Shown here in pieces: positions 6,299-50,431 of a stretch of DNA of 64,000 bases. How positions within the stretch are numbered: the first letter of the stretch is position 1; every line of letters begins with the position of its first letter. The stretch is from positions 64,001 through 128,000 of IMG/VR virus record IMGVR_UViG_3300012147_000006, one strand, 5' to 3'. The translations under genes were made by a program, and so were the position numbers. The notes under the pieces are model-generated. The model made no database searches, was not told where the DNA came from, and saw only the letters and a program-made list of their open reading frames with translations. The stretch comes from a virus.

Positions 6299-6303
6299 AT
6301 ATA

Positions 6304-6699
6304 TTAAATTAAATGGTTTCCATTCAAATATTCTCTTGCACTCTCAAACTCTTCTTTGTACTCATCACTTTCAGAACTCTCAAAGTCAAATCCATTCTCA
6401 CTTGAAATGCTTTCCAATTCATCAACAACGTTACAGTGCATATAAATTGGCTCTTCATCTGAAATGTTCTCATCAACTTTATCACGAATCTCATCACTCA
6501 CTTCATTCTCAATCACGTAGTAAAGAGGTGTTAACTCATAAGAAGGTGTAATCTCACAAAGGTTTGTAGTTACAGAACTATCGTACATATAAACCGTTTC
6601 AATCTTTCCACAAGCATCTTGAAGTTGTTGTTTCCAAAATCTTGTTTCATCAATTGCTATTACTCTAATTTCGCTTTTTACTAATGTTGTAGTTTCCAT
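6304..6699 (-). CDS. Acidic hypothetical protein
   Basis: ORF after the promoter at 6725. Confidence 0.8.
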   Translation of the reverse strand: METTTLVKSEIRVIAIDETRFWKQQLQDACGKIETVYMYDSSVTTNLCEITPSYELTPLYYVIENEVSDEIRDKVDENISDEEPIYMHCNVVDELESISSENGFDFESSESDEYKEEFESAREYLNGNHLI

Positions 6700-6752
6700 A
6701 ATTTCTTTTTTTTGGTTATATCTGTATAACGATTAATTTTTAAAAAGTTACA

Positions 6753-6936
6753 AAAAAAGCCCAGAAGAAAATCCTCTGGGCTCTCATATTGTTCGTTATA
6801 TGCAATGTAAAAGTTTTATTAGTGTGTAACACCACCCTTGCAATTATACAGCATATAACACTGTTCAACACCGTTGCCATAAGTGTTTTAATAGTAGGTA
6901 TCACCATTCTACCATTATATGAACATATCGTTTCCT
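6753..6936 (-). ncRNA. Candidate structured small RNA (~180 nt)
   Basis: Promoter at 6942, 5' AGGAAACG, several hairpins, GCCCAGAGGA/TCTTCTGGGC-T terminator, no convincing ORF. Confidence 0.45.
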
Positions 6937-6970
6937 ATTTGTATAACGAAATCAATTTAAAAAGTTACAA

Positions 6971-7252
6971 TTATCTTCTTCTATGGCTAAAATTTCTTTT
7001 TTTAGCCAAATGTTTACCTTTTTGTTTTGTTTCTCTAAATTTAGAAAATGGAACTTTATCTGGTTCAATAAAAACCTCTGGCATTTCTAAAATATCATTT
7101 CTGGTAATTAGAAATACTTCTGGCTCTGGCTCAAAAACATTCTTAACGTCATCAACTACTATGGTATAGCCTTGCTCCATTGCAAGTTCCATCAAAGCTA
7201 ACTTTGCACCAGCAGAACCACCGCTACCGCATCCCACAACAACTACATTCAT
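6971..7252 (-). CDS. Hypothetical protein
   Basis: ORF with ATGA overlap; N-terminal VVVVGCG motif only, no full Rossmann domain. Confidence 0.65.
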   Translation of the reverse strand: MNVVVVGCGSGGSAGAKLALMELAMEQGYTIVVDDVKNVFEPEPEVFLITRNDILEMPEVFIEPDKVPFSKFRETKQKGKHLAKKRNFSHRRR

Positions 7253-7584
7253 ATTGCTACGTTTGTGTAAAACATGAACATTCTCTCGTCATTCATGTGA
7301 ACCCAGACATGACTTCTGGTTCTTCCACATTCAAACTTTCCTGTTCTTTTTGCAGTATCAGAATTACAGAAAGTTCTGCAATCAATCAGCATCTTATCCA
7401 GAACTTCATCATCAAATGCTTTTGTATGTTCGTCTGGCTCTTCCTCTCTGGCAATTTGCAATTCAGCAATTCCCGTATTGTTCCAGAATCTCATACATTC
7501 AAGTAAGTTTCTTGAAATGTAGTTAGACGCACCTTTGAAGGCGTTCTCTACTTTAATTTCTACTATCTGTGTCTGTGTGTCCAT
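7249..7584 (-). CDS. Hypothetical protein, probably leaderless
   Basis: ATG (MDTQTQ) is 5 nt after GTTATA of the promoter at 7590. Confidence 0.75.
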   Translation of the reverse strand: MDTQTQIVEIKVENAFKGASNYISRNLLECMRFWNNTGIAELQIAREEEPDEHTKAFDDEVLDKMLIDCRTFCNSDTAKRTGKFECGRTRSHVWVHMNDERMFMFYTNVAI

Positions 7585-7686
7585 ATCTGTATAACGATGG
7601 TTTTTTAAAAAGTTACAAAAAGCGAAAGAGGATAACAACCTCAGTCATTACCCTCTCTCTATGTTCATAACCAAACAAACAAATAT

Positions 7687-8136
7687 CTATTTTTGCAACT
7701 TGTTTTTCAAGTCCAATAATCCCATATAGCCAAGTTCGTTTTCGTCACATTTTCTGTCGCTAATGTTATTATTAATCAATTGCAAAACTGCTGTTAATTC
7801 TCTATCAGTAAATTCTAATTGAGTTTTATCATTTACATCTTCTATTGGTGTAAATGCGTCCACTATTTCGCAAAGTTGTTCAAACTCAATTCCACTATGT
7901 GCATAACTGTAACCGCTTTCGCTAATCAATGCGTATGGAGAAACTGCAACAACATAAGTTGAAGCTCCATCAATGTTGTACATCAATTCATCATCTTTGC
8001 CGTTTTCTAATTTTAGAACGTTCTCGCTGACAACATTGCTTTTTACTCCTATCCCTTTTGTATTAACAAGTTCAATTATTTTCTGAATAACCTCTTGCTC
8101 AATTTCCTCTAATTTATCTTTAAATCCTTTTGCTAT
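7687..8136 (-). CDS. Hypothetical protein (start uncertain)
   Basis: Frame is open 50 codons upstream of the listed start, to ATA-GCA-AAA just downstream of the promoter at 8161. Confidence 0.6.
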   Translation of the reverse strand: MAKGFKDKLEEIEQEVIQKIIELVNTKGIGVKSNVVSENVLKLENGKDDELMYNIDGASTYVVAVSPYALISESGYSYAHSGIEFEQLCEIVDAFTPIEDVNDKTQLEFTDRELTAVLQLINNNISDRKCDENELGYMGLLDLKNKLQK

Positions 8137-8189
8137 TGCTTTAGTGTTTTTAGTTATGTTTATAACGATTTGTTTTTAAAAAGTTACAA

Positions 8190-8438
8190 TCAATCTTCTA
8201 AGTTAAACACTTCATTTTCATCCTTACCCAATACATCAACTGCGTAGTCTTGAATGTGGTCAATCAAATGAATAATGCCTTGCACTTCGTTAATTTTTTC
8301 TTCACTAACGGTTTTAATTATCCCATTCTTTACACCTTTAACTGCACCCAATATTTCAATCAATGCTTCCTTTTGCTCTCTTAACTTATTAAAGTCAATG
8401 AAGTCTATAATGTCGTCTGCTGAATCAAATTCTGCCAT
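8190..8438 (-). CDS. Hypothetical protein
   Basis: ORF between class I elements. Confidence 0.8.
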   Translation of the reverse strand: MAEFDSADDIIDFIDFNKLREQKEALIEILGAVKGVKNGIIKTVSEEKINEVQGIIHLIDHIQDYAVDVLGKDENEVFNLED

Positions 8439-8488
8439 GTCTTAAAGTTTTATTGGTTATGTTTGTATAACGATTTGTTTTTAAAAAG

Positions 8489-8830
8489 TTACAATATATT
8501 AATAATCTTTTTTGTCTTCTCTAAATCAGGCAATCCGTTGAACTCTCTTGAAAGTTCTTTGTAGTTCTTTACCAAGTACTCAAGCGTAATTACTTGCACG
8601 TAATTGTATTTATCTCCATACACCAAAATTGCGTGGTATCTATCAGAATAAAGTTCGTTGAACTCCTTAACTCCATCAAACAACATATCAGAATTTGAAT
8701 CCTTTGTTGCTTCATCATAGAACTTTCCAAATGCAATGGTAGATTTTTCTTCCTCTTCCTCCTGACGTTCTTCTGCTAAGTCCCATAGCACCACAGACTT
8801 CAGGTCTTTAAATAATTTTCGCTTACTCAT
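8489..8830 (-). CDS. Hypothetical protein
   Basis: ORF; stop lies in TTGTAA of the next element. Confidence 0.75.
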   Translation of the reverse strand: MSKRKLFKDLKSVVLWDLAEERQEEEEEKSTIAFGKFYDEATKDSNSDMLFDGVKEFNELYSDRYHAILVYGDKYNYVQVITLEYLVKNYKELSREFNGLPDLEKTKKIINIL

Positions 8831-9005
8831 CTTCTAATAAATCTTTACAAGCCCCAATGAATAAATCTAATTCGTTCTGCTCTGACTCTCCCGCTTCTAT
8901 TTCATCTTGCATAAGTTGAAACATATCGTTAACTTCATCTTTTAATTCAGGGTTCTTTCCTAAAAACTCTTTTGCAAATTCTTGTGCTTCTGCTGTTGCG
9001 CTCAT
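8823..9005 (-). CDS. Small acidic hypothetical protein
   Basis: ORF after the promoter at 9030. Confidence 0.75.
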   Translation of the reverse strand: MSATAEAQEFAKEFLGKNPELKDEVNDMFQLMQDEIEAGESEQNELDLFIGACKDLLEDE

Positions 9006-9085
9006 GTTATAATGTTTTTGTTACAAGTGTATAACGATGAGTATTTAAAAAGTTACAAGCTGACGCTTTTCCGCTTCGCTTACAA

Positions 9086-9508
9086 TTATGACTTTAAGTA
9101 AAAGTTGTGGTGTTTTTCAAGAATTTCTCTTTGAATCGCTACTTCTTTAATCGCTTCATCAAGTTTTTTTGAATACTTCGCTTCAACTTCTTCAATGAGT
9201 CCATCGACTCTAATTCTTTTATGAAAGAAGGTACGGTTTATGCGCTCTTTTTCAGCCTTAATTCGGTTTATAATACTTTCCTTGGTTTGAAGCGCTCCTG
9301 TATATTCTAAAGACTTTACACAATGAAATGAAGGCTTCATAATTTCTTCGAACTCTGTTTTGAATTCTGAAATGCTTTTGCCAGCATATTTTTCATTTAG
9401 TTTGTCTTCCATCTTTCCTTCGTGAGGAAAATCTGTAATAACACCATCTTTTACGTTAATAAAAATAGGGTGTCCAAATGCTCTGTCTATATAAAATTGT
9501 GCGTCCAT
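9086..9508 (-). CDS. Hypothetical protein, probably leaderless
   Basis: ATG is 5 nt after GTTATA of the promoter at 9514. Confidence 0.8.
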   Translation of the reverse strand: MDAQFYIDRAFGHPIFINVKDGVITDFPHEGKMEDKLNEKYAGKSISEFKTEFEEIMKPSFHCVKSLEYTGALQTKESIINRIKAEKERINRTFFHKRIRVDGLIEEVEAKYSKKLDEAIKEVAIQREILEKHHNFYLKS

Positions 9509-9543
9509 ATCTGTATAACGATTGAAGTTTAAAAAGTTACAAT

Positions 9544-9819
9544 TTAACGAATCTCAATTGTTAAAAGTTTTGACTGCGCATTATAATAAAAATGCGCTTT
9601 ATTGTTGTCGAACTCTGAACTCACGTAAAAACGACCCAACCTTTTCTCTGTTATCGTTCTCTGCTTGTCCAATTGCCCCAGCAACTCAAAACCAATAGCG
9701 TTAGCCTTTTTCATGCTGGGCATCTTTCCTAAAAAACCACCAGCTTTAATAATATCTTTGACTAATTCGCTGGTAGTTATTTCACTTTTTAACCAGCTGG
9801 CTATATTTAACTTTCTCAT
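9544..9819 (-). CDS. Hypothetical protein
   Basis: ORF with ATGA overlap. Confidence 0.7.
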   Translation of the reverse strand: MRKLNIASWLKSEITTSELVKDIIKAGGFLGKMPSMKKANAIGFELLGQLDKQRTITEKRLGRFYVSSEFDNNKAHFYYNAQSKLLTIEIR

Positions 9820-10010
9820 TTCTTTATCATTGTTTGTGAATACTCATTTTCAAAAGTAGTATCTTTGTGTTGAGTTCCCGAAAATCTGTTTTGTTGGTGT
9901 ACCGTCACCACTTGGTGAGAACCCAACGGCTCCCACCCTTCAGCTTGCATGTCAGCAATCTTTTTATTAAGACCGCTTGCGTGTCTTGAAGTAATTATTT
10001 TCTGCTCCAT
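9816..10010 (-). CDS. Small hypothetical protein
   Basis: Start corrected to MEQKII (TAATG coupling). Confidence 0.7.
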   Translation of the reverse strand: MEQKIITSRHASGLNKKIADMQAEGWEPLGSHQVVTVHQQNRFSGTQHKDTTFENEYSQTMIKK

Positions 10011-10225
10011 TATTTTATCTTTAGTTCTTTTCTTAACCATGCGTTACCTTCCCTATTAGGACTTACAATAAATCCTCTTCCCGTTTCAGCGTGCTGAATC
10101 GAGCCACCGTATCCGTTTTCAAGAATGTTAATTGCATTTTCTGCGCTATACTGACCCCCATCACTTGGTTGAAGGCAGTGGTTTTCGAAGTCATCTTCTC
10201 CTAAAGCTTTACTAATTTCGTACAT
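10010..10225 (-). CDS. Hypothetical protein
   Basis: ORF after the promoter at 10254. Confidence 0.7.
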   Translation of the reverse strand: MYEISKALGEDDFENHCLQPSDGGQYSAENAINILENGYGGSIQHAETGRGFIVSPNREGNAWLRKELKIK

Positions 10226-32877: not shown

Positions 32878-33447
32878 ATGAAAAACATAATCATTTTTGG
32901 ACCTCCTGGAACTGGGAAAGGAACAATGTCAGAGAAAGTTGCAAAAGAGTTTGGATTTAAACATATTTCTACTGGCGACATAATTAGAAAGAACCAGGAA
33001 GAGAAGACAAAGATTGGAATTCTTGCTGACAAAGTTGTAAATCAAGGAAATTTGCTTCCAGATAATATTGTCAATGAAATGATTAAGCAAGAGATTATTG
33101 ACAACAGCAATGCTTCTGGGCTCATATTTGACGGTTACCCAAGAACAACAGACCAAGCAAAAACTCTGGACCAATTTTTAAACAAAAGAAAGGCTCCAGT
33201 TTCAAAAGTTATTCTGCTTGATGCTGACAAGTATGTTATTAAAAACAGAATTTTAGAAAGAGGAAGAGAAAGCGGAAGAAAAGATGATAACGCTGAAGTT
33301 TTCGAAACAAGATGGAGCGCCTATCAAAAGGAGACAATTCCAGCTTTAAATTATTTTGAAGGTCGTGGAATGGTTGTGAAAGTTGATAGCGAAAAATCTA
33401 TTGAATCGGTTTATGATGAGGTTAAAAGTATAATTAACGCATTATGA
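32878..33447 (+). CDS. adk: Adenylate kinase
   Basis: GPPGTGKGT, HISTGD, FDGYPRT, GRKDD (short LID). Confidence 0.95.
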   Translation: MKNIIIFGPPGTGKGTMSEKVAKEFGFKHISTGDIIRKNQEEKTKIGILADKVVNQGNLLPDNIVNEMIKQEIIDNSNASGLIFDGYPRTTDQAKTLDQFLNKRKAPVSKVILLDADKYVIKNRILERGRESGRKDDNAEVFETRWSAYQKETIPALNYFEGRGMVVKVDSEKSIESVYDEVKSIINAL

Positions 33448-35012: not shown

Positions 35013-35999
35013 CTACACTTTTTCTGACTTTGTTCTCATGTCAATGAAGTTGTCTGTTTCGTCAACAATTTCATAACCAAATATTTCTTCATGTATATCT
35101 TCAAGAGTAATGATTCCAAGTATATTGTCATGTTCATCAACAACAATTAACAAGTGCTGTCTTGCGGTTCTAAAAATCTCCAATATGTCATCCAACTTCG
35201 TATCATCCTTTACAGTAATTGGCTCATTTGCTTTGTTCATTATTTTAGTACCCTTTCTCATTCCGAGAAGATTCTTGGCAAGGACGACTCCAACAACTTG
35301 GTCCCTCTTTGTTTTGAAGACGGGCACTCTTGTGTGACCCTTCTGAATTATGCTATCAATTAATTCTGTGGTAAGCTTTTGGTCTTCATAGAATCTATAC
35401 ACATTTTTCTTTGGTGTCATTACCTCTCTTGCTGTCTTATCAGAGAACGTTAGAGCTCCCATAACAGTTTTTGCTTCCCTTTCATCAATATCAGTAGTAA
35501 TGTCCAGCTGGTGGTCTCTAATCATCTCGCCAATTTCAAACTTTGTATGTCGAACTGGAGGCTCAGGCCCAAGAAAATAATCCATAATTTTAGAAAGCGG
35601 CCAACATATAACCCAAAGAGCAATCATAAACACTCTAAATACAGGAGCTGCTTTTGAACCTATTTCAAGAGGATACCTTGAGCATATTGCTTGTGGTAAT
35701 ATTTCACCAAACACAACAACTAATGCTGTTGCAACAATCACAGCCATTGCACCAGTAAACATCTCACTCATGTATATTGCAAGTATGTTGTTAACTAATA
35801 CGTTACCTATAAGAATCGTACAAAGAAGAAGGTTTCCATTCTTTCTAAGTCTATAAACAACATCAGCTCTCTTGTCGCCCATGCTTATTTTTCTTTGCAA
35901 CTCTTCTTTCCCAAGGGACATAAACCCAAGGTTAAGTCCAGAAAATAATCCAGACATAAATAATAATCCTAAAATAATCCCTATACTAATTAGCTCCAT
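35013..35999 (-). CDS. CNNM/CorC-HlyC family (DUF21 + CBS pair) membrane protein
   Basis: SGLFSGL, LLCTILIGNVLVN, VFGEILPQ, VMTP, HTRVPV, VDEH..GIITLED.EE.G..DETD. Confidence 0.9.
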   Translation of the reverse strand: MELISIGIILGLLFMSGLFSGLNLGFMSLGKEELQRKISMGDKRADVVYRLRKNGNLLLCTILIGNVLVNNILAIYMSEMFTGAMAVIVATALVVVFGEILPQAICSRYPLEIGSKAAPVFRVFMIALWVICWPLSKIMDYFLGPEPPVRHTKFEIGEMIRDHQLDITTDIDEREAKTVMGALTFSDKTAREVMTPKKNVYRFYEDQKLTTELIDSIIQKGHTRVPVFKTKRDQVVGVVLAKNLLGMRKGTKIMNKANEPITVKDDTKLDDILEIFRTARQHLLIVVDEHDNILGIITLEDIHEEIFGYEIVDETDNFIDMRTKSEKV

Positions 36000-37143
36000 C
36001 TTCTTTTACGTGGTATTGAACTTTATAACATTCGTTGAGGTCTGGGACATCCAGGGCACCAATCATACTATTAACTGCGTCCTCTGGGACCTTGTAGTAT
36101 CTGTTATGATTTTGATTTAATAAAACTTTATATGGAACCTCTATGTAGATAACTTCTACCTTGGCTCCGTAATCTTCAAATTCTTTAATAGCCTTTCCAC
36201 GCATATCTTTTGTGATATTTGTTGCGTTGAATACAAAATCTTGCTTAACTCTCATGTGAACTTTACACATTTCCTTGATGTCTTGATAGATGTGGCCTTC
36301 TGCTTTGGTGTCTCCACGCTTAACTTTTCTTTCTCTTCTCAGCGCATCAATTGATACCATTGGAAGGTCGGGTATGTTGTTTTTAATAAAAGTGTCTTTA
36401 CCAGAACCTGAAACAGCGCACATAATGTAGGCTATTAAATCTTTTTCATCAAAAGGCTCATAGTCAGGGTGTGCTTCTTCTTTTTGGAAGTAGTATCTTC
36501 TACCGAGGTCGGATGCGAACTCTCTTGCGTTTCCAAAGCATTTATTATCCTTGCAAAGCTCTTCAAACAATTCTACACGCATTAGCATTTCTTCTGAATC
36601 TTTTGCAATCCTACCAAGTATATCAGCTTTTGCAAATAGTCCAAGCATTTTCGTATTAAGAAACAAACTTGCGCCAATAACCTCTTTATCTGGATTCTCT
36701 TTTTCTATAGCCCAAATTGGCAATCCGTGGTGACGAACAAGCTTACAAATATGTTCTCTAATTATAAATGGAGTTGATATGTCTTTGTATAAAATTACCC
36801 TGGCAGTCTTCTCTCCTCTCTTGGCATGACTTCTTGAGGTGATTGCCATTCTCTTGACTCCATTCTCTTCAATTTCCTCTTCTTCTGTTGTGGAACGTTT
36901 TTCTATGTCATGAAACATTGCGGTTGCAAACAATATATGTTGCCCCTGTTCGTCAAAACACTTAAAATCTGGATGTGCAACAAGTGCCTCCGCCACCATT
37001 TTGGTGTGAACGAATACATCGCCTTCAGCGTGCCAGATTTTATCTTGAGGTACTCCCTTCATATCTCGGAACCAATCGAATTCTTTTTCGAGTTTGTCCC
37101 AAGGTATAGGAAGCCCTACTTCATAGTAAGGGAATTTCCACAT
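35986..37143 (-). CDS. HD-domain phosphohydrolase fused to P-loop (AAA_33/polynucleotide kinase-like) domain
   Basis: WHAEGDVFVHT, FHDIEK, AVSGSGKDT, FNATN. Confidence 0.85.
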   Translation of the reverse strand: MWKFPYYEVGLPIPWDKLEKEFDWFRDMKGVPQDKIWHAEGDVFVHTKMVAEALVAHPDFKCFDEQGQHILFATAMFHDIEKRSTTEEEEIEENGVKRMAITSRSHAKRGEKTARVILYKDISTPFIIREHICKLVRHHGLPIWAIEKENPDKEVIGASLFLNTKMLGLFAKADILGRIAKDSEEMLMRVELFEELCKDNKCFGNAREFASDLGRRYYFQKEEAHPDYEPFDEKDLIAYIMCAVSGSGKDTFIKNNIPDLPMVSIDALRRERKVKRGDTKAEGHIYQDIKEMCKVHMRVKQDFVFNATNITKDMRGKAIKEFEDYGAKVEVIYIEVPYKVLLNQNHNRYYKVPEDAVNSMIGALDVPDLNECYKVQYHVKEDGAN

Positions 37144-37881: not shown

Positions 37882-38166
37882 ATGTCACAAGTAGATAAGA
37901 AAATAGAATTCATTAAAATTTGGTATACATCAGAGTGTGCTAAGCTTAGCTTTGGAGATAGTCTTAAGCTTGCCAGAATATGGATTGAAGTTTGTCTTAA
38001 AGATGAGGAGTATGAGATGGCAGCTGCAATAACAGAGGAAAGACAGAAAATAATAAAGAAACACATCAAAAATAAGAGAAGCAAAAGACGTTTGTCTCAA
38101 AAGATTGTGATTTGGATATATCTTTGCAAAAGGAAGATGTCTGCCAAGCTTAAAAATAGACGATAA
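37882..38166 (+). CDS. Small protein with UVR-like motif
   Basis: EEYEMAAAI; TATTTATA at 37840. Confidence 0.65.
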   Translation: MSQVDKKIEFIKIWYTSECAKLSFGDSLKLARIWIEVCLKDEEYEMAAAITEERQKIIKKHIKNKRSKRRLSQKIVIWIYLCKRKMSAKLKNRR

Positions 38167-38484
38167 AAGTATTTTTTTTAACCCGTTAGCTTTACCAATA
38201 GAATCCCGTGTACCCTTTGACTTCGAATACCAAAAAGCTACTACTAATTCTGAATTTTCTATTATTGTTGTATTTCTTAGGAATCCAGCTTTTTTACCAA
38301 ACAGGTCCCACTGGGCAAGGTAAATTTCGGTTGGCAAACCTTTTTCTTTGGCATATCTCTCAGATAATTTGTCGGCACCCCTTGTTCCTCCAGATACTAT
38401 TTTAGTGATATAAAATTGTTCTAAAGTTTTCTTAAGAAGCTCATAATCATTAAACTCCCTACCTCCTATTACTGCTACTTTCAT
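38150..38484 (-). CDS. SLOG/YspA-like (DUF2493) protein; 3' end affected by an A-run frameshift
   Basis: VIGGREF, IVSGGTRGAD, AGFLRN, VAFW..SKGT; one extra A at 38172-38179 gives the ending KKNTFIVYF*. Confidence 0.8.
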
Positions 38485-38487
38485 ATT

Positions 38488-38697
38488 TTAATATTTAAAA
38501 ATCTCTGGAAGAAGGTTTTTTACCATATCTCTAAAACCATCATTACTACCAATTTCTTTTATAAGTAAAAATTTAAACTCTTCCCTATATTTTTCATTTT
38601 TAATGATATTTTCTTTGGTTACATTTTTAAAACCATTTGCCATTAAATTACGAACACCGTTATCTATCAAATGTTCTCTAATTTGTTTATTTTCCAT
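38488..38697 (-). CDS. Hypothetical protein
   Basis: ORF. Confidence 0.65.
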   Translation of the reverse strand: MENKQIREHLIDNGVRNLMANGFKNVTKENIIKNEKYREEFKFLLIKEIGSNDGFRDMVKNLLPEIFKY

Positions 38698-38789
38698 TAT
38701 TTTCTAAATTTAGAAGTGTTAAAAAATATGCCAACTTGGTATTCGTCAATAAAAAACATTTTTAACACTATTTATATAAAAATAAAGTT

Positions 38790-39710
38790 ATGGCTAATAA
38801 GTTTAATACACAAATATTTATAAATAAATCAACAAAAATTCATGGTGAATATTATGACTACTCCTTGGTTGAGTATAAAAATTGTGATTCTAAAGTTAAA
38901 ATAATATGCCCAAAGCATGGTAAGTTTGAGCAAATTCCTTACTTACATTATAAAAAAGGTAGTGGATGTATTAAATGTGCTGAAGAAAAAGTTGGAATGT
39001 CGTTTAGAAAGAGTGGTAAAGATTTTATCTCAGAAGCCAATAAAATACATAATTATTTTTATGATTATTCTTTTGTAAAATATGATGGTGCTCGAAAAAA
39101 CATAACAATAACCTGCTTAAAACATGGAGAATTTGACCAGACTCCAACTAATCACTTAAAAGGAAAAGGTTGTAGGAAATGTTATAATGAAAAAATAAGA
39201 GACAGACTATTGATGACAACAGAAGAATTTACGTCAAGAGCTAAAATAATTCATGATTATAAATTTGACTACTCATTGGTTAGCTATAACGGTGGTAGAA
39301 ATAAAGTAAAAATAATATGCCCTATACACGGAGAGTTTGAACAGACTCCAGAAAATCACCTTAGTAATCGTGGGTGCAGGAAATGTAGAAGTTCTAAAGG
39401 GGAAAAAGAAATAAGAAAAATTCTAAAAGAAAATGAGATTAATTTCAAAGAACAACACACATTTGAATTGTGTAGGCATATAAACAAACTTCCTTTTGAT
39501 TTCTATTTACCTGAACGTAATTTATGTATTGAATTTGATGGTAGACAGCATTTTGAGGTAATTGAATTTTATGGAGGACAAAAAGGCTTTGATTCTACAA
39601 AAATAAATGACCAAATCAAAAATGATTATTGCAAAAATAATGGAGTCACACTAATTAGAATTAAGTATGACTCCATTATAAAAAAAGAGTTAAATAAAAT
39701 TATTTCCTAA
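38790..39710 (+). CDS. Putative homing endonuclease (three CPxHGxF Zn repeats + Vsr/DUF559-like nuclease)
   Basis: YDYS..Y..KVKIICPxHGEF..GCxKC x3; LPFDFYLP..IEFDGRQH..D..K. Confidence 0.8.
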   Translation: MANKFNTQIFINKSTKIHGEYYDYSLVEYKNCDSKVKIICPKHGKFEQIPYLHYKKGSGCIKCAEEKVGMSFRKSGKDFISEANKIHNYFYDYSFVKYDGARKNITITCLKHGEFDQTPTNHLKGKGCRKCYNEKIRDRLLMTTEEFTSRAKIIHDYKFDYSLVSYNGGRNKVKIICPIHGEFEQTPENHLSNRGCRKCRSSKGEKEIRKILKENEINFKEQHTFELCRHINKLPFDFYLPERNLCIEFDGRQHFEVIEFYGGQKGFDSTKINDQIKNDYCKNNGVTLIRIKYDSIIKKELNKIIS

Positions 39711-40554
39711 AAACATCTGTATTAAATGTTGGAATAGGTATCATCTTGTGAAGATTAGCTCTATGTCTTTTTAGATATATTTTCATTACTTCTTTTTCTC
39801 TTTCACTACAATCTTCATATATATGAACACCAAGATTTATGTCATTTGATGCTGTACCTGTATAATAATTCATAGCCCACTCTAATTCTGAGTATGTACA
39901 TCCCAATTGTTCTTCGTCTGTACGAGCGTCATCATGAAGTCCATCTGTAGGAGCAGCAACCAGGATGTCGTTGTTAATTCCAAGCTCAGAACCTAACTTA
40001 TAAACTTCTGACTTCATAAGGTCAGCGATAGGAGATAAATCAACCCCACCATCACCATACTTAGTATAGAATCCGATTCCGAAATCCTCAACTTTGTTTC
40101 CAGTTCCAGCGACAAGCATTTTGTTCATTCCTGCATATTGATAAAGAGTTGTCATCCTAAGTCTTGAACGTGTGTTCGCCATTGAGAAATCAAAGTCTTC
40201 AGCAGAAATCATTCCTACAACTCCTTTTGATTTATTAGCATATGTGTTATAAAGAACGCCATAAGCCTCTGTAAGGTCAATCTCTTTTGAAGTTACATTG
40301 TCGAAGTTATCCTTAAGCCATTGAATGTGGTTCTTGGCTCTATCAACTTCTGCAGTCCCCTGGTGAATTGGCATTTCAAGAACCAAAAGGTTCATTCCAG
40401 TTCTTGCGCATAATGTAGACACTACTGCAGAATCAATTCCTCCAGATACTCCCATTACAAATCCGTTTGTTCCAGATTTTCTAACGTAGTCAGTTAACCA
40501 GTCAGAAATCCCTTCTGCGATGGCGCTATAGTTAAGTGTTGTAGTTGTTTCCAT
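39700..40554 (-). CDS. nadE: NH3-dependent NAD+ synthetase
   Basis: SGGIDSAV, NTRSRLRM, GTGNKVE, TKYGDG, APTDGL, DEEQLG. Confidence 0.95.
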   Translation of the reverse strand: METTTTLNYSAIAEGISDWLTDYVRKSGTNGFVMGVSGGIDSAVVSTLCARTGMNLLVLEMPIHQGTAEVDRAKNHIQWLKDNFDNVTSKEIDLTEAYGVLYNTYANKSKGVVGMISAEDFDFSMANTRSRLRMTTLYQYAGMNKMLVAGTGNKVEDFGIGFYTKYGDGGVDLSPIADLMKSEVYKLGSELGINNDILVAAPTDGLHDDARTDEEQLGCTYSELEWAMNYYTGTASNDINLGVHIYEDCSEREKEVMKIYLKRHRANLHKMIPIPTFNTDVFRK

Positions 40555-40559
40555 TTTAT

Positions 40560-41186
40560 TTATTTTTGAAATAATTTGTGTTCTTCAATGTGTTCAATTA
40601 CCGCATCTGGAACGAAGTATCTATTTGAAATATTTAATTGGATGTTCTTTCTAATTAAAGTGGCAGAAATGTCAATCTGAGGAACATCTTTAAGGTATGT
40701 TGATACTGAGTGAGCTTTGTCTGTCAACTTCCACTTAGAATCCTTCTCAGACACTTCTCGTGGATATACAATCATATCATGCATGTCAAGAATTTCTTCA
40801 CGTTTTCTCCAGTAGTTACCCATTTTTCTCTGAGTATCTGTTCCAACCACGATTGTAAAATGAGTCTCTGGGTGTGCGTTTCGAAGTGCGCTTAGCGTTT
40901 CTGCAGTGTAAGATGGAACTGGCATGCTAAATTCAATATCACATGTAGAAAACTTAGGCTCATCAGCAATTGCCTTAGAAACCATCTCTAATCTATGGTT
41001 GGCATCTTCGAGTTCTCCGCTTTTTACCTTAGCAGGGTTTTGGGGGGACACAACAAACCATAATTCATCAAGGTCTGTGTGCTCAAGAGCTGCCTTAGCA
41101 ACAATGAGGTGGCCAATATGAATAGGGTTGAATGAACCGAAGTATAATCCAACTTTTTTATTTAGAAGTTTAGTCTTCATTTTCAT
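40560..41186 (-). CDS. nadD: Nicotinate-nucleotide adenylyltransferase
   Basis: GSFNPIHIGH, SPQNP, ISATLIR. Confidence 0.93.
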   Translation of the reverse strand: MKMKTKLLNKKVGLYFGSFNPIHIGHLIVAKAALEHTDLDELWFVVSPQNPAKVKSGELEDANHRLEMVSKAIADEPKFSTCDIEFSMPVPSYTAETLSALRNAHPETHFTIVVGTDTQRKMGNYWRKREEILDMHDMIVYPREVSEKDSKWKLTDKAHSVSTYLKDVPQIDISATLIRKNIQLNISNRYFVPDAVIEHIEEHKLFQK

Positions 41187-41847
41187 CTTCGTTTATAACT
41201 TGTTCAGCAATTTTCTTTGCACGCTCCATTCTTTGATTCTCAATAAACTGTCTTCCTGCAGCAACTACTTCAGAATTTCTAAAATGCCAAAGCGCTTGTG
41301 CTCCAATTAGTGTTTTTCCATCACAAATAGTTCCATCAGCAACCATATCAAAGAACTTGCTAACACCATGTGATTCTATCTCAATATTTTCATGCTCCCC
41401 TTCTACTCCTCCGCCATTTGAAGCTTTGTCTTCATTGGTAACAAAAGCTAAGTACAAGTAAATTTTTTCTGAAGAGTACCCTGGAGAAGCAAAGAAAGAG
41501 TTTAGCAAGCCCATCTTTCCTTCTTGTACTTCGTACCCAATTTCTTCTTTTATCTCTCTTAAGGCAGCGTCTGATGGAGATTCTCCTTCATCAACTTTTC
41601 CAGCTGGAATTTCAAGGATATTACCATCAACTTTGTCATCAATTGGATAACGGTGTTGCTTAACAAGAATTACAGTATCATCACTGTTGTTGTAGACAAC
41701 AATAGCTACAGCGTCTGGTCTTGTAAGTTTGAATCTGTCGTAAGTTTGAACTTCTCCGTCTTCAGCAGTCTCTTCAACAATGCCTTTATCAATTTTAAAG
41801 TACTTATCATACTCTCTTTGTTCTGTTATTACTTTAATTTTTGGCAT
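41170..41847 (-). CDS. NUDIX hydrolase, ADP-ribose pyrophosphatase-like
   Basis: Nudix box GKVDEGESPSDAALREIKEEIG; QHRYP, SPG and DGKT motifs of the NudF/NudK type. Confidence 0.85.
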   Translation of the reverse strand: MPKIKVITEQREYDKYFKIDKGIVEETAEDGEVQTYDRFKLTRPDAVAIVVYNNSDDTVILVKQHRYPIDDKVDGNILEIPAGKVDEGESPSDAALREIKEEIGYEVQEGKMGLLNSFFASPGYSSEKIYLYLAFVTNEDKASNGGGVEGEHENIEIESHGVSKFFDMVADGTICDGKTLIGAQALWHFRNSEVVAAGRQFIENQRMERAKKIAEQVINEDENED

Positions 41848-42262
41848 CGTTTATTTTTTTAATTAGGTTTTCAATTTTAGCTTTTGCTCCAACCCCAAGA
41901 GGTCTCTTGTCTCCGTCTTGCTTGTCAATCCTTACAAAAACTGCTCGTGTTTTGCAAACCAACTTTTCCATTCCAGTGTGAACATTATATTTTCTCGCTT
42001 CAAGCGCAATTACTATTGATGTGGTTCCAACACTTATTGGTTCTCCATAAATATTAACTTGCGTATTTTCTCTCACTTTTTTGAGGAATTTTACTCCCTC
42101 CATTTCTCCAGTTACCATACTGCTTGATTCACACAAGCTTGTGGCCCAAATTGCCCCAGCCTTGTCTAAAAAACTCATCATTTTCCCACCAAAAAGATTA
42201 CCATGAATTCCAAGGTCACCTTTCAATACTAATTCTCTTGTAATAAGCTCCATATTAATCAA
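41834..42262 (-). CDS. Hotdog-fold acyl-CoA thioesterase (YciA-like)
   Basis: DL..HGNLFGG.MM..LD, VGTTS, FVRID. Confidence 0.85.
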   Translation of the reverse strand: MINMELITRELVLKGDLGIHGNLFGGKMMSFLDKAGAIWATSLCESSSMVTGEMEGVKFLKKVRENTQVNIYGEPISVGTTSIVIALEARKYNVHTGMEKLVCKTRAVFVRIDKQDGDKRPLGVGAKAKIENLIKKINDAKN

Positions 42263-42552
42263 ACTCTTATTTTAACTCCAGTGCAAATTCTATTTTCATC
42301 CAAAACTACTCCTATAGTTTTTATTGGTCTGTTATTTGAAAACTTTAACAAATCTATTTCTATACTTTTTGTCATCATTCACCTTAAGTTCATTAAGCAA
42401 ATAATTAATAGTGTCATCAACGCCTTTTAAATACGCTTGATTTACGTTTGACCACAATGTTTCATCAGACATGTTGTCTGGAGAATTTGGTTTTATGTTA
42501 TCAGAATAGTCAACTGATTTTTCTTTAAATTTTCTCTAATATTTTTCATATT

Positions 42553-43263
42553 TTATATAAATTTCCAAACATAACCGCATGCTGTTTTTCTTTTTCCTTT
42601 ACAAACTTCTCTTATGTGGTCGTTTTCGTATTTTTTTATAGCAATACTTAAGTTTTCAAACTCTTCTTGCAATTCGTTTTTATCAAACCTTCCAACCCTT
42701 AGTGTTTGATATGCGTTTTTAACTTTTATTTTCTTTTCAAAGTTACAACTTTCTTTCCAAATAAAAAAATAACCACGAGAAAATTTAGGTTTATTTTTTG
42801 GCACAGCACCCAATCGTCCTTTGATACTTTCTTCTGCTTTTTTTTTAGATTCGAACTCTTTTAAAAAATCACCTTTTAAATCATATTGAAGGATTGGTTT
42901 ATATAGTTTTTTTACAACTTCTTTTGGCCTCTTTCTGCCAGTTAAAGATTTTCTTATCTTATCTTTAGTTTCCTCGCTTGTTGTATGTCCAAAAACTGCG
43001 CCACCAACTCCTCCATCTTGTAGGTTATAAAAATCTTCTGATTTAACAGCATCAAAAAAATCTATCCACCACACCTCTCTATTTTCAAGATGGCATCTAT
43101 CTGTGCATTCTTCTAAAGTTATTTTTTTAAAATTTTCTTTGCCATATTTTTTTATAGCTTTAGTCAGCACTGTTCCAGAACCCAAGTAGCTTTTTTTGTT
43201 TTTTACATCTTTACCTATATAACGCTTTTTGTTAATAAGGTTAATTGTCATATAAACTACCAT
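42553..43263 (-). CDS. GIY-YIG homing endonuclease (NUMOD3/NUMOD1)
   Basis: VVY..YIG, YLGSG, YNL..GG, HTTSEETK, GYVWKF. Confidence 0.88.
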   Translation of the reverse strand: MVVYMTINLINKKRYIGKDVKNKKSYLGSGTVLTKAIKKYGKENFKKITLEECTDRCHLENREVWWIDFFDAVKSEDFYNLQDGGVGGAVFGHTTSEETKDKIRKSLTGRKRPKEVVKKLYKPILQYDLKGDFLKEFESKKKAEESIKGRLGAVPKNKPKFSRGYFFIWKESCNFEKKIKVKNAYQTLRVGRFDKNELQEEFENLSIAIKKYENDHIREVCKGKRKTACGYVWKFI

Positions 43264-43333
43264 AGTATTGTTTTACTATAAATAGTTTATAAAAACACTT
43301 TTACACCAAATCCATTAAATCATAATTCCTCCA

Positions 43334-44599
43334 TCAATTTTCCGATACTTCTGCAACCTTTTCTACTTCTTTAATTCTTAAAGTGTCCTTACACAGTTGG
43401 ATTTCTTCTTTGGTGCCAGTGTGTTTAATTGGATTATCACTAAGCTTAACTGTGTCAAACCATATGTCTCCAACTTTTACTTGAACAATCTTGATGACCA
43501 TGTTGAGAGCTTTAACTCCAACGTCATTTGTAAAATGGGTCCCAATTCCAAAAGAACTTTTGATTGCCGCAACAGGAGAACCATAAGCTATCGCTGTCTT
43601 TATACCAAGGTCTTTACAAAACTTGTATAAGTCAACAGCAATGTCTGTATTAAGACCGTCAGAGAATACAATAGTTTTAGAAGATGAGTCAATCTCAAGT
43701 TTTCTATAATGAGCTACAACTTTAGTTGCAAACTCAAAAGGGTCGCCAGAGTCATGACGAACTCCATCAAATAATTTAGCGAATTTTTTATCGAATGTTT
43801 TGAAAAATACATCTGTAGTAAATGTATCAGAAAGTGCAATACCAAGGTCTCCTTCATAAACTTTAACCCAGTTCTCAAGAGCTCTGTAGTTTGCCATTGT
43901 GTATCCGTAATGTACAGCATGGAACATGAACCATTCATGAGCGTGAGTGCCTATCGGTTGAATGCCTGTCTTCATTGCAATATGCACATTAGATGTACCT
44001 ACAAGGAATGGGTTTCCATTATCGAAACAAGAAAGCAAGTCCTCAACTACTTCCAATTGGTTGTCATAAGAATATCTTCTACGAGTTCCAAAGTCAGCAA
44101 CCTTCATTCCGTGAGTGTAGAATTTCTTACCCTTTTCAATATTGTTTGTGTGCCTCTCGCTTCTGCTCTTAATTTTTTCTCCAGTCATCTGGAAGTAAAG
44201 TTCAGATATAAGCGCCATAAGAGGAACTTCCCAAAGGATAGTTCTGTACCAGTAACCAGTAATGTTGATTGTAAGGTCGCCACCGTCTTGCGTGATTCCT
44301 ATTTCAGAAGAGTCATATCTATATGATTTCAAAAAATCAATATATGTAGGCTTTAAAAAGCTACCGCATTTTTGTGTAAGAAAATCAGCTTCAGAGTCTT
44401 TTAAAGATAGTTGTTCCATCTTTTTAAGTTCTTGTCTAAGCCTAAGGTCAAATCCATCTGGGAACTTTGTTCCGCCTCTGTTGATGAAATTGTACTTAAC
44501 CCATTCTCTTTGAAAAAGCTCCACAACAGCTTGTTGTTGGGTAAACTTATATAAATCATTATCTATTATAGACTTAATTATACTTGACTTTTCGTTCAT
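43334..44599 (-). CDS. pncB: Nicotinate phosphoribosyltransferase
   Basis: DNDLYKF, DFGTRRR, GTSNV, GTHAHEW, ALSDTF, GVRHDSGDP, FSDGL, FGIGT, KLSD. Confidence 0.95.
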   Translation of the reverse strand: MNEKSSIIKSIIDNDLYKFTQQQAVVELFQREWVKYNFINRGGTKFPDGFDLRLRQELKKMEQLSLKDSEADFLTQKCGSFLKPTYIDFLKSYRYDSSEIGITQDGGDLTINITGYWYRTILWEVPLMALISELYFQMTGEKIKSRSERHTNNIEKGKKFYTHGMKVADFGTRRRYSYDNQLEVVEDLLSCFDNGNPFLVGTSNVHIAMKTGIQPIGTHAHEWFMFHAVHYGYTMANYRALENWVKVYEGDLGIALSDTFTTDVFFKTFDKKFAKLFDGVRHDSGDPFEFATKVVAHYRKLEIDSSSKTIVFSDGLNTDIAVDLYKFCKDLGIKTAIAYGSPVAAIKSSFGIGTHFTNDVGVKALNMVIKIVQVKVGDIWFDTVKLSDNPIKHTGTKEEIQLCKDTLRIKEVEKVAEVSEN

Positions 44600-44624
44600 A
44601 ACATTATAGTTTTATATAATATTA

Positions 44625-44650
44625 TACGAACAAATTTACAAAATGTTTCA
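44625..44650 (-). promoter_or_regulatory. Class II ECF-type promoter of the NAD cluster
   Basis: TGAAAC-N16-CGTA, 25 nt upstream of pncB. Confidence 0.7.
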
Positions 44651-44651
44651 A

Positions 44652-45820: not shown

Positions 45821-45891
45821 AATATTTTTATTTAAAACATTTTTACCTATTCTACGTATAATAAAGAAAAATGTTTCAACTATTTAATTAA

Positions 45892-47304
45892 ATGAGCAAA
45901 GAAATTAGAAATAAAATAGCAAATATACTTAACGAGGAATTTGGAGAATCTCAAAAAGACAAGCTCGTTGGGATGTTAAACGCACTTGAATTTAAGAATG
46001 ACGTTCTTGCAGCAGGAGGAGAAATTTACGCTGTAGGAGGAATTGTGCGTGATGCAATTATGGGAACGCCAAGTGATGACCTTGACATTGTTGTTCGTGG
46101 TGTAGCTTACGACCAGTTATTTGCGATACTTTCTAAATATGGAAAACCGACTGACACGTCTCACGTAGATGAGAATGGTAAGAAGGATTTTGGTTCTACA
46201 AAGTTCGTTTCATCAAATAAAGCCTTTAATCAATTTCTTGCAGACAATGGTGCTGCCAGAGATATTGATGTGATGCTTCCTCGTAAGGACGCAAAGGACG
46301 TTGGAGTAAAGGGTCACAAAGGAATTAAATCTGAAGTAAACCCAATGTTTACAATTCAAGATGACCTTGAGAGACGTGACATAACAATAAACGCAATCGC
46401 CATGGATATGGCTGGCAATCTAATTGTAAATGGAACTGGGGTTGAGGACATTCAAAATGGTGTCATAAAAGCGGTTAATGCAGATGCGTTTATTGAAGAC
46501 CCGCTTAGAATGCTTAGAGCTGTAAGGTTTGCTGCAAGATACAATTACAATTGGGACCCAGAAACTGTTAGACTAATTAAAGAAAACGCCTCACTTCTTG
46601 CTGACAAAGAAGAGTTGCACAGCAGTAGATTCTTAAAAGAGTTTCAGAAGATGATTGGTAAAGCTGATTTATCAAGAGCTGTTCGATTGATTGTTGAACT
46701 GGGTATGTACAAGCATATTTTTGGCGTAGAGTCAAAGATTCAAGATTACACTAAATTTCAATACGCAAATAGCGTTGGGGAGATGGCATACATGATGTTT
46801 GACAACGAAGCTTCAGGAACAATTTTAGGACTGGTTAACAACAATATAACAGATGACAAATACACCGCTGCCGTTGTAGAGTCTCTAATTAACTACGTTG
46901 GCAATGTGAAAAACAAAAACCTTGACTTCATCAAGAGAGTTAATGAGCTTGCTTCTATCTTTCTTAAAAAAATGGATACAGTTGCGAGAACAGGTCCAGG
47001 CGTAGACGTTTTAACAAACTCTTACTACATAGAACCTCATGATAGAGAGATTGCAAGAAAGTTTTCTACTGGAGAACTTCCAGCTGGAGAAAATGACGTT
47101 GCCTTTAAGGGTCAAGAGTTTGCTGAATTTGTAAGAGACATTATAGTAAGCAACCAGGGTGAGTTTAGTAAATCAAAAGATGGCAGAAAGTTTGGTAACG
47201 CAAAAAGACTTGCGCTAACAGCTCTTTACAATGAAGAGATTGAAAACGATGTTGATAGTATTAAAAGATTCTTGATTGATTCCGCAAATCAATGGATGCT
47301 ATAA
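45892..47304 (+). CDS. tRNA nucleotidyltransferase (CCA-adding) / poly(A) polymerase family
   Basis: VGGIVRD, DLDI, DLERRDITINA, FIEDPLRMLRAVRF. Confidence 0.9.
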   Translation: MSKEIRNKIANILNEEFGESQKDKLVGMLNALEFKNDVLAAGGEIYAVGGIVRDAIMGTPSDDLDIVVRGVAYDQLFAILSKYGKPTDTSHVDENGKKDFGSTKFVSSNKAFNQFLADNGAARDIDVMLPRKDAKDVGVKGHKGIKSEVNPMFTIQDDLERRDITINAIAMDMAGNLIVNGTGVEDIQNGVIKAVNADAFIEDPLRMLRAVRFAARYNYNWDPETVRLIKENASLLADKEELHSSRFLKEFQKMIGKADLSRAVRLIVELGMYKHIFGVESKIQDYTKFQYANSVGEMAYMMFDNEASGTILGLVNNNITDDKYTAAVVESLINYVGNVKNKNLDFIKRVNELASIFLKKMDTVARTGPGVDVLTNSYYIEPHDREIARKFSTGELPAGENDVAFKGQEFAEFVRDIIVSNQGEFSKSKDGRKFGNAKRLALTALYNEEIENDVDSIKRFLIDSANQWML

Positions 47305-48951: not shown

Positions 48952-49122
48952 ATGAAATTTATAAATAACTGGAAGAGCCCGAACAAACAATGGGACAAAT
49001 GGGAATTCAGACTAAGACTTGGCGCTATAGATGTACTTAGACTTAAATACGACCACTCAGACAAATATTTTGAATTTAGAGTTATTAACTTAGGTGGAAA
49101 ATTAGGTGGACGTAGAAAATAA
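48952..49122 (+). CDS. Small hypothetical protein (56 aa)
   Basis: Read manually: MKFINNWKSPNKQWDK...; TATTTATA at 48929. Confidence 0.6.
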   Translation: MKFINNWKSPNKQWDKWEFRLRLGAIDVLRLKYDHSDKYFEFRVINLGGKLGGRRK

Positions 49123-50431
49123 CATACCAGAAGAAGGGAGAAACTTATCTCACACAGCAAAAAGAAGCGCTAAGTACAGGAACAAAAAAGGTCCTGCTAA
49201 GTATTTCAAGCCGTATAAGAATCTTAAGTACATCGTAATGGACGAAGAAGTTGAGCCAGATGATGTATCAGTTCCTGTTGCGCCATTAAGAGATGAGTTA
49301 AATGCTAAAGTTTGGACTGCAGATAATCAATTAAGACCAGAGGTAAGACAGGCGTTGATTGATATTGCTAATTCTTATTTTGAAGCGCTTGAGCTTGAGC
49401 TGGAAATCAAAGACATTTTGTTTACTGGAAGCCTTGCTAATTATGGATGGACTGAAGGTAGTGATATTGACTTGCATATTATTGTAGAGTATGGAGAACT
49501 TGGAGAAGTTGCATTTCTCGAAGACTATCTTTATCTTAAAAAGAAAAACTGGCTTGATGCTCACAATATTTCTATTTATGGATTCGAAGTTGAACCGTTT
49601 GCAAAAGATGTTGAGAACGAATTTGCCTACAAAGCAATTTATAGCGTTCTAAATAACGAATGGGTGGTTCCGCCAAGAAAAGATAAGCCTGTAATTGATT
49701 TTGAGACAGTTAAAGAAAAGTCTGCAAGTCTTATGAATGATATTGATAAAATCTTATCAATAAAAGATAATGTACAACAATTTGAAGCTGCTGAGAAACT
49801 TAAAAACAAGCTTGGCGGATTAAGAAACATTGGCCTACATAAAAGTGGCGAATACTCTAATGAGAACCTAATTTATAAAACACTTAGAAGAACTGGGTAC
49901 CTTGATAAGTTAGGTGATGCTAAAAATGATTCGTTTGATGCTGGGCTGTCACTTAACGAAGGAGTTAAAAGCAAAGTTATAAGTGAGAATAAAACTGTAA
50001 CTCAAAACCTTGGCGCTACTCCAATGGTTCATACACTAAAAGTGCAGAGTGGAATTGATGGGATGATTCCAGAAAAAATTAGAATAATAAAAGACTTTAT
50101 AAGTTTCGTGTGTGGAAAGCTTGGAATGGAAGAACCTGTAAGCGTATGCCTTAGAAGAGGTAGAGACGCTTATATTGAAACTACAGCTTCGTATGTGCCA
50201 GGAGACAATGAAAATCACATTAGATGCAATGGTAGAGCTCTTGTAGACATACTTAGAAGTATAGCGCACGAACTTACTCACAATAGACAGAGAGAAGTTG
50301 GTATGTTCGGAAATGGAGACCAGGTTCAAAATATTGGAGGCCACATTGAGGACCAAGCTAATTCAGTTGCTGGAATCTTTATAAAAGACTTTACTCACAA
50401 TTACGGGTACGACAATATTTACGACATTTAA
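49106..50431 (+). CDS. Pol-beta-type nucleotidyltransferase fused to HExxH domain (start uncertain)
   Basis: TGSLANY..SDIDLH, VE third carboxylate; C-terminal IAHELTH. Confidence 0.75.
   Translation: MDVENNIPEEGRNLSHTAKRSAKYRNKKGPAKYFKPYKNLKYIVMDEEVEPDDVSVPVAPLRDELNAKVWTADNQLRPEVRQALIDIANSYFEALELELEIKDILFTGSLANYGWTEGSDIDLHIIVEYGELGEVAFLEDYLYLKKKNWLDAHNISIYGFEVEPFAKDVENEFAYKAIYSVLNNEWVVPPRKDKPVIDFETVKEKSASLMNDIDKILSIKDNVQQFEAAEKLKNKLGGLRNIGLHKSGEYSNENLIYKTLRRTGYLDKLGDAKNDSFDAGLSLNEGVKSKVISENKTVTQNLGATPMVHTLKVQSGIDGMIPEKIRIIKDFISFVCGKLGMEEPVSVCLRRGRDAYIETTASYVPGDNENHIRCNGRALVDILRSIAHELTHNRQREVGMFGNGDQVQNIGGHIEDQANSVAGIFIKDFTHNYGYDNIYDI

Follow-up and report, generated by a model that had tools for sequence, protein, structure and literature searches.

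The window analysed here is a 64,000-nucleotide stretch of viral DNA, bases 64001-128000 of the 142,155-bp IMG/VR record IMGVR_UViG_3300012147_000006, which is estimated to be 65% complete. Between positions 39700 and 44599, its minus strand carries five co-oriented metabolic genes, namely pncB, a thioesterase gene, a NUDIX hydrolase gene, nadD and nadE, where a model's reading of the letters alone (the sequence-only reading) had placed them. The three genes predicted to take nicotinate to nicotinamide adenine dinucleotide (NAD+), pncB, nadD and nadE, all lie within 4.9 kb, and the virus record that carries them also has phage-type homing endonuclease genes and matches to PHROG families. The five genes are as follows, in the order of transcription.

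43334-44599, minus strand: pncB, predicted nicotinate phosphoribosyltransferase of 421 amino acids (PF04095, PF17767, TIGR01514, NF003704)
41834-42253, minus strand: predicted hotdog-fold 4HBT YciA-like acyl-CoA thioesterase (PF03061, phrog_18230); the likely start is the ATG at 42253, and the listed open reading frame (ORF) begins at the TTG at 42262
41170-41847, minus strand: predicted NUDIX hydrolase of the YffH/AdpP (ADP-sugar/ADP-ribose pyrophosphatase) family (TIGR00052)
40560-41186, minus strand: nadD, predicted nicotinate-mononucleotide adenylyltransferase of 208 amino acids (TIGR00482)
39700-40554, minus strand: nadE, predicted NH3-dependent NAD+ synthetase of 284 amino acids (PF02540, TIGR00552, phrog_11189)

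The reading frames of the thioesterase and NUDIX genes overlap by 14 nt and those of the NUDIX gene and nadD by 17 nt, and nadD and nadE are separated by 5 nt. PncB scored 392 bits with TIGR01514 (cut-off, 269.55) and 440.9 bits with NF003704 (cut-off, 379); its best solved relative was PDB 2im5 (318 bits), to whose GTHPHEW the histidine motif GTHAHEW was aligned. NadD reached 159.9 bits with TIGR00482 (cut-off, 112.45), had the B. subtilis NadD structure 1kam as its best solved relative, and retained the motifs GSFNPIHIGH and ISATLIR, while its match to NadR models was marginal (23 bits against a cut-off of 341). NadE scored 166 bits with PF02540, 167.3 bits with TIGR00552 (cut-off, 63.65) and 256 bits with phrog_11189; it has the SGGIDS PP-loop and no glutaminase domain, and its solved relatives, 3fiu being the best, were all NH3-dependent NadE proteins. 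The thioesterase matched PF03061 (49.4 bits), its solved relatives were acyl-CoA thioesterases of the YciA/HI0827 type, and its HGNLFGG..D motif was intact. The NUDIX protein scored 103.8 bits with TIGR00052 (YffH/AdpP; cut-off, 79.55), its nearest solved chains were ADP-ribose pyrophosphatases and NudK, and its motifs were complete, comprising the Nudix box G-x5-E-x7-REIKEEIGY and a downstream ASPGYSSE. The catalytic motifs of all five proteins were invariant across the aligned relatives. Both the gene assignments and the intact catalytic motifs of the sequence-only reading were thus borne out, with family models exceeding their curated cut-offs where these exist.

Two other identities were considered for the NUDIX protein. 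NudC, a hydrolase of NAD-capped RNA and NADH, was rejected with a marginal match only (20.6 bits against 158), and an NrtR-type regulator was ruled out because the protein has a full Nudix box and no DNA-binding domain could be found in it. The NadE protein had its closest relatives in marine cyanophages and one pelagiphage; when the region was compared with isolated phages by megablast, the sole match was a 90-bp stretch of nadE in cyanophages, so that no close cultured relative is known.

To survey the conservation of the cluster, as the sequence-only reading had proposed, PncB was used to scan IMG/VR (20 loci) and species genomes (80 loci). The same gene order was found in five related phage-like loci: L002, L010 and L074 have the full order pncB-thioesterase-NUDIX-nadD-nadE with full-length, intact ORFs, and L023 and L029 keep the operon start and are cut by contig ends, the former within nadD and the latter just after the thioesterase gene. 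Protein identity of the related loci to the window was 38-79%. The thioesterase gene immediately follows pncB in L029 also; since pncB abuts the thioesterase gene in L010, L023 and L074, the ancestral unit is best read as one five-gene operon, pncB-thioesterase-NUDIX-nadD-nadE. The lineage represents a compact and well-conserved five-gene version of the pathway. L023, L029 and L074 are filed under bacterial metagenome-assembled genomes (Deltaproteobacteria and uncultured bacterium) and carry this operon. L023 and L074 share a phage CCA-adding enzyme gene, L074 has a GIY-YIG gene as well, and L029 is only 1.8 kb long; all three were read as phage contigs, probably mis-binned.

Among the cellular pncB loci, 76 of the 80 had no partner gene within 6 kb; these were mostly from Bacteroidota, with PncB identities of 50-58%. 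In a PncB tree built from best hits only, hence from a biased sample (FastTree, LG+gamma; 99 sequences, 94 of them distinct; midpoint-rooted, with approximate support values), the six operon-bearing loci formed one clade (support 0.93). A second clade (0.88) of 72 Bacteroidota-like cellular sequences had no viral members, and all sampled viral PncBs fell outside it. This pattern of PncB sequences argues for a lineage long resident in phages. Recent capture of a host operon was rejected, since the 76 cellular loci lack the partner genes and the viral PncBs lie outside the cellular Bacteroidota clade.

The locus is very probably a phage operon for NAD+ synthesis by the nicotinate (Preiss-Handler) route, supplying NAD+ to a Bacteroidota host. 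PncB would convert nicotinate and phosphoribosyl pyrophosphate (PRPP) to nicotinate mononucleotide (NaMN), driven by ATP through a phospho-histidine; NadD would adenylylate NaMN to nicotinate adenine dinucleotide (NaAD); and the ammonia-type NadE would amidate NaAD to NAD+. The co-translated NUDIX protein, being of the ADP-sugar/ADP-ribose type, most likely cleaves ADP-ribose to AMP and ribose-5-phosphate, and an adenylate kinase encoded nearby, together with the PRPP synthetase (Prs) of the host, would return these two products to ATP and PRPP. The adenylate kinase gene, which the sequence-only reading had noted as well, is the following.

32878-33447, plus strand: predicted adenylate kinase (Adk; PF00406, 152.9 bits; NF001381, 201.5 bits against a cut-off of 187)

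It lies ca. 6 kb beyond nadE and ca. 4.5 kb beyond a SLOG-domain gene that is downstream of nadE; it is followed by a dihydrofolate reductase gene, and the kinase gene is syntenic in the related record G002. By these steps, the operon would maintain or raise the NAD+ pool of the host during infection and would also blunt NAD+-depleting immunity. The loop is not closed by the phage genes, as nicotinamidase and PRPP synthetase would come from the host, and the YciA-like thioesterase is a fixed yet unexplained member of the operon. The deamidated route with ADP-ribose recycling by the NUDIX protein had been put forward in the sequence-only reading; its pathway from nicotinate through NaMN and NaAD to NAD+ agrees with the family models and motifs, but the NUDIX substrate was assigned only to the level of the subfamily. 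What we infer are the substrates of the NUDIX protein and the thioesterase, the timing of expression and the benefit to the phage. The gene context is in keeping with a large marine or aquatic phage, and a Bacteroidota host is suggested by the PncB affinity (50-58% identity), a GldE-like gene in the window and a thioesterase homolog in a Flavobacterium phage.

Several observations weigh against this reading. The sequence-only reading had stated that PncA and Prs are missing from the window, and a search of the whole record (G000) and its relatives G001, G002 and G003 extended this: neither the PncA family PF00857 nor Prs (PF13793) was found in any of the four. A tblastn search of G000, G002, L023 and L074 with phage PncA-like proteins gave no match at a limit as loose as E<=1. 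PnuC (PF04973), a transporter considered below, was likewise absent from G000, G001 and G002. None of these records is a complete genome, but G000 and G002 share a collinear stretch of ca. 44 kb, from which each continues to a different side, and jointly they cover ca. 246 kb. This span is near the size of a 257,352-bp contig on which an identical PncB is listed; the analysed record itself is 142,155 bp, and the whole genome may exceed the 200 kb that sets jumbo phages apart. The phage lineage thus probably has no PncA of its own. NADases release nicotinamide, which needs a nicotinamidase before it can enter the nicotinate route. The operon, as predicted, starts at nicotinate and would not by itself recycle nicotinamide. 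Without PncA, it would need either nicotinate from outside or a nicotinamidase of the host, which makes the case for reconstitution weaker than for the known phage pathways NARP1 and NARP2. Isochorismatase-family proteins are encoded by those named Bacteroidota whose PncB is closest, and such proteins could plausibly supply the nicotinamidase in the host.

Further points on the same side concern the two enzymes between pncB and nadD and the surroundings of the operon. The NUDIX protein scored below the cut-offs of the equivalog models (NudK, 88 against 234; NudF, 64.8 against 248), so that, as a member of the YffH/AdpP subfamily, it may act on ADP-ribose, GDP-mannose or other nucleoside diphosphate (NDP) sugars. 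No place in NAD+ chemistry is known for the thioesterase, and its nearest homolog from a cultured phage, with 43% identity, is encoded by the Baltic Flavobacterium phage vB_FspM_immuto_2-6A (L105, 28489-28917). No NAD genes are annotated within 7 kb on either side of that homolog, and no PncB match was found in the immuto record. The homolog adjoins thymidylate synthase and 7-deazaguanine genes in what is a nucleotide-metabolism region. The neighbours of the operon in the window also belong to nucleotide and RNA metabolism (Adk, dihydrofolate reductase, a protein resembling deoxynucleoside monophosphate kinases, a CCA-adding enzyme, and a protein with HDIG and AAA_33 kinase domains). This neighbourhood is one of nucleotide metabolism, not an anti-defence island, and it fits a metabolic role at least as well as defence. 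A gene for NAD-dependent DNA ligase (LigA), which could have accounted for a special NAD+ demand of the phage, was not found in G000-G003. The estimated completeness of the record, 65%, counts here too.

Other phage lineages in IMG/VR differ in gene content at the entry step. In L013-L015, L017, L004, L003, L008 and L020, PncB and NadE are encoded close together with an isochorismatase-family, PncA-like protein, and a NUDIX protein accompanies PncB and NadE in L013-L015, L017, L018 and L021. Within the fetched flanks of the PncA-bearing loci, no thioesterase homolog was found by tblastn, and a NadD-like stretch was seen among these other lineages in L003 only, whereas the lineage of the window has NadD and the thioesterase without PncA. 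A co-oriented pncB-GroEL-nadE-NUDIX-pncA-like array ending in an inosine-monophosphate dehydrogenase/GMP reductase gene was seen at L015:9010-14915 (also in L013, L014, L017, L018 and L021) and looks like a nicotinamide-capable variant. The phage genome of L004 is complete, with a length of 405 kb and repeats at its termini; its nadE, a pncA-like isochorismatase gene and pncB lie within 5 kb (5430-10167).

Phage clusters of the nicotinate route have been known since 2024, when a study in Microbiome that reported 174 'NAD-jumbo phages' described pncB-nadD-nadE 'Preiss handler' clusters (for example, Kuafu_71 and Kuafu_19; PMC11662467). The Kuafu clade was assigned Bacteroidota hosts, and counter-defence against NAD+ depletion was suggested there and said to need testing; neither a thioesterase nor a NUDIX protein is mentioned (PMC11662467). 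The locus in the window resembles those clusters in that a large phage with a Bacteroidota host (predicted there and inferred here) encodes the three enzymes side by side, and in the idea of counter-defence, and differs from them in the thioesterase and NUDIX genes fixed inside the operon and in its invasion by homing endonuclease genes. The present lineage is set apart by its fixed thioesterase gene, by having no PncA and by the invasion of endonuclease genes.

The phage pathways that restore NAD+ by other chemistry were also compared. The compositions given in the sequence-only reading, Adps and Namat for NARP1 and Nampt and Nmnat for NARP2, agree with the literature. Its label of a candidate third route could not be kept, since that place is taken by NARP3, in which PnuC and NadR import nicotinamide riboside (Science Advances, August 2026; PMC13464706), and since the phage pncB-nadD-nadE clusters had been published in 2024. 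PncB, NadD and NadE are not mentioned in PMC13464706 or in the NARP1/2 preprint. Like NARP3, the present operon would bring an outside pyridine precursor into NAD+ on a phage genome, but the enzymes are unrelated and no PnuC was found here.

NARP2, as represented by NadV/NatV of vibriophage KVP40, likewise consists of a phosphoribosyltransferase that uses PRPP and an adenylyltransferase acting after it, and in both cases synthesis is probably constitutive. The KVP40 NatV protein also carries a Nudix domain. NARP2 takes nicotinamide directly and needs two enzymes, while the operon studied here has a nicotinate-type transferase, would pass through deamidated intermediates and requires NadE as a third enzyme. 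A Nampt was not recognised, as the lone PF04095 protein passes the nicotinate-specific equivalog model. NARP1 shares with the operon the handling of ADP-ribose, the second NADase product, but it pyrophosphorylates ADP-ribose and rejoins it with nicotinamide, whereas the NUDIX protein here would destroy it; neither a Prs-like Adps (PF13793) nor a second PF04095 protein was found in the record. When compared with the four-step salvage of nicotinamide by PncA, PncB, NadD and NadE, the locus has the three Preiss-Handler enzymes and lacks PncA.

Since no nicotinamidase is encoded, the operon may serve to feed nicotinate into NAD+ synthesis, and not to recycle what NADases release. Judging from its gene content, its most likely function is that of a phage-run nicotinate-to-NAD+ supply line with clearance of ADP-ribose, which plausibly helps against NADase immunity. 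Within a nicotinate-route operon, two selective advantages come into consideration. A general auxiliary metabolic module, turning environmental nicotinate into a larger NAD+ pool for the replication load of a large phage independently of immunity, is a serious possibility, though we stop short of calling it probable. The operon is embedded in a region of nucleotide and cofactor metabolism, the absence of PncA fits scavenging of nicotinate, and NadE on its own is often encoded by marine cyanophages and pelagiphages (42-50% identity). Moreover, constitutive synthesis of the NARP2 type raises NAD+ without defence (PMC13728456), and phage Preiss-Handler routes complement hosts that have de novo synthesis only (PMC11662467). 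However, such a module leaves the fixation of an ADP-ribose-type NUDIX protein unexplained, and no NAD+-consuming enzyme of the phage was identified here, LigA being absent.

A dedicated counter-defence role can be entertained tentatively. The operon would then have been selected for restoring NAD+ after the action of SIR2, TIR or other NADase effectors, with host PncA converting the nicotinamide set free into nicotinate and the NUDIX protein returning the carbon of ADP-ribose to PRPP. Depletion of NAD+ is a widespread anti-phage strategy, NADase defences being common, and three phage routes that restore it, NARP1, NARP2 and NARP3, have been shown experimentally; if it is true that the operon protects against NAD+-depleting defences, the nicotinate route would be a fourth. 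The ADP-ribose-type NUDIX protein fixed in the operon fits the clearing or reuse of the second cleavage product, and the pncA-like gene beside pncB, nadE and the NUDIX gene in other phage lineages shows that nicotinamide entry has been selected in phages. The same proposal was made in PMC11662467; the literature searched contained no experiment on a phage cluster of the nicotinate route. The lineage of the window is without PncA, several ATP-consuming steps as well as host PncA and Prs would be needed for each NAD+, which would be slow and costly under acute depletion, and the genes sit amid those of nucleotide metabolism. No PADLOC link was seen beyond a generic NUDIX match.

It is unlikely that the thioesterase and the NUDIX protein form a separate linked pair outside NAD+ metabolism, trimming pools of acyl-CoA or NDP-sugars or degrading a nucleotide immune signal. 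The immuto homolog without nearby NAD genes would be in keeping with such a pair, as would the best equivalog match of the NUDIX protein, which is the GDP-mannose pyrophosphatase NudK, and its weak match to a NUDIX model of a PADLOC candidate system. In every clade member that reaches that far, however, both genes are placed between pncB and nadD in frames that overlap or abut, and phage lineages unrelated to this one likewise have a NUDIX gene with pncB, nadE and pncA.

A reordering of the steps, in which NadE would act as a nicotinamide mononucleotide (NMN) synthetase on NaMN, as in Francisella, and NadD would then adenylylate NMN to NAD+, appears improbable. It is suggested by 3fiu being the best solved relative of NadE (104 bits), the structure of the Francisella tularensis enzyme characterised as NMN synthetase. 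The margin over ordinary NadE structures (93 and 89 bits) is small, and the adenylyltransferase matches TIGR00482, an equivalog of the NadD type whose members prefer NaMN. Finally, because the thioesterase occurs without PncA in this clade and PncA without the thioesterase in others, one might suppose that the thioesterase fills the slot of PncA, supplying nicotinate or removing a blocking intermediate by a chemistry so far not known for the hotdog fold, with the NUDIX protein steering ADP-ribose back to PRPP, and would so make the operon a self-sufficient anti-NADase system; this complementary distribution, the sole support, is a single evolutionary event, and we regard the idea as highly improbable.

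The operon in the window is flanked and interrupted by further features.

44621-44651, minus strand: promoter-like element TTGAAAC-N16-CGTATAAT immediately before pncB, conserved as GAAAC-N16-CGTATAA
44652-45341, minus strand: second GIY-YIG homing endonuclease gene, upstream of pncB (PF01541, 33.7 bits; phrog_314)
42553-43263, minus strand: free-standing GIY-YIG/NUMOD homing endonuclease gene between pncB and the thioesterase gene (phrog_314, 113 bits; NUMOD1; GIY-YIG)
38790-39710, plus strand: HNH-type homing endonuclease gene between nadE and the SLOG gene (phrog_559, 267 bits)
37930-38484, minus strand: SLOG (YAcAr) domain protein gene downstream of nadE (PF10686, 47.3 bits against 28.2; phrog_289)

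The element upstream of pncB is a promoter-like motif by its sequence. GAAAC-N16-CGTATAA, with identical boxes and spacing, stands directly before pncB in L002 and L010 as well. The two-box pattern GAAAC-N15-18-CGTANAA, which was defined after the data had been inspected, occurs five times in the 142-kb record, for which 200 Markov simulations gave an expectation of 0.2, and conservation in L002 and L010 lends the element support independent of this post hoc enrichment. All five copies are shortly before start codons (window 44621-44651 and 45849-45879; genome 17278, 20042 and 23490). Two copies of the GAAAC-N16-CGTA(T/G)AA class flank a block of small ORFs and the GIY-YIG gene before pncB, and the three copies outside the window precede small genes of unknown function. 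The exact 12-mer TTGAAACATTTT was not enriched in the window, the enrichment being confined to the two-box motif with fixed spacing. In a scan for sigma-70 promoter and terminator consensus sequences, sites were no more frequent than in shuffled sequence, so that the scan was uninformative on the phage's own promoters. A search of the window with Rfam at gathering thresholds gave no matches, neither a known NAD+ riboswitch nor an intron, and a tRNA search found none. Of the single class II promoter that had been proposed for the cluster, the conserved two-box motif before pncB stands; its promoter role is suggested by sequence, and the operon behind it is interrupted.

The interruptions differ among relatives. 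Between pncB and the thioesterase gene, the window has the GIY-YIG gene at 42553-43263 and ca. 290 bp with tiny ORFs only, and the interval between nadE and the SLOG gene holds the plus-strand HNH gene and a 69-codon ORF. The first GIY-YIG gene is present in L002 and missing from this site in L010, L023 and L074; the upstream one is present in L010, L016 and L074 and missing in L002 and L023; the HNH gene is missing from its site in L002, L010 and L074. Because the endonuclease genes vary in this way, and because pncB abuts the thioesterase gene in L010, L023 and L074, the three are best regarded as variable later insertions into intergenic sites. The view of the genes as one unit therefore holds for their common orientation, but homing endonuclease genes now interrupt it and split pncB from the rest.

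A SLOG gene just downstream had also been claimed. The SLOG domain is present, but the HNH gene and the 69-codon ORF lie between it and nadE, and a SLOG homolog follows nadE only in the closest relative, L002. The family match of the SLOG ORF is limited to residues 1-106; its final ca. 75 codons overlap, on the opposite strand, a convergent ORF at 37882-38166, for which a homolog with 45% identity exists in G002. Since a run of eight A residues sits at the end of the SLOG domain, at the junction with the tail, this extension may have arisen from an assembly error or from chance read-through, and the true protein may have ca. 110 amino acids.

Other genes of the window deserve mention. A protein with HDIG and AAA_33 kinase domains (Pnkp-like; 35986-37143), a CCA-adding enzyme (45892-47304) and a second nucleotidyltransferase (49106-50431) flank the operon and could constitute an RNA/tRNA repair set. 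At 35013-35999, a CNNM/CBS membrane protein is encoded whose best match is the model of the Bacteroidota gliding-motility protein GldE (158 bits, below the cut-off), a gene that is unexpected in a phage.

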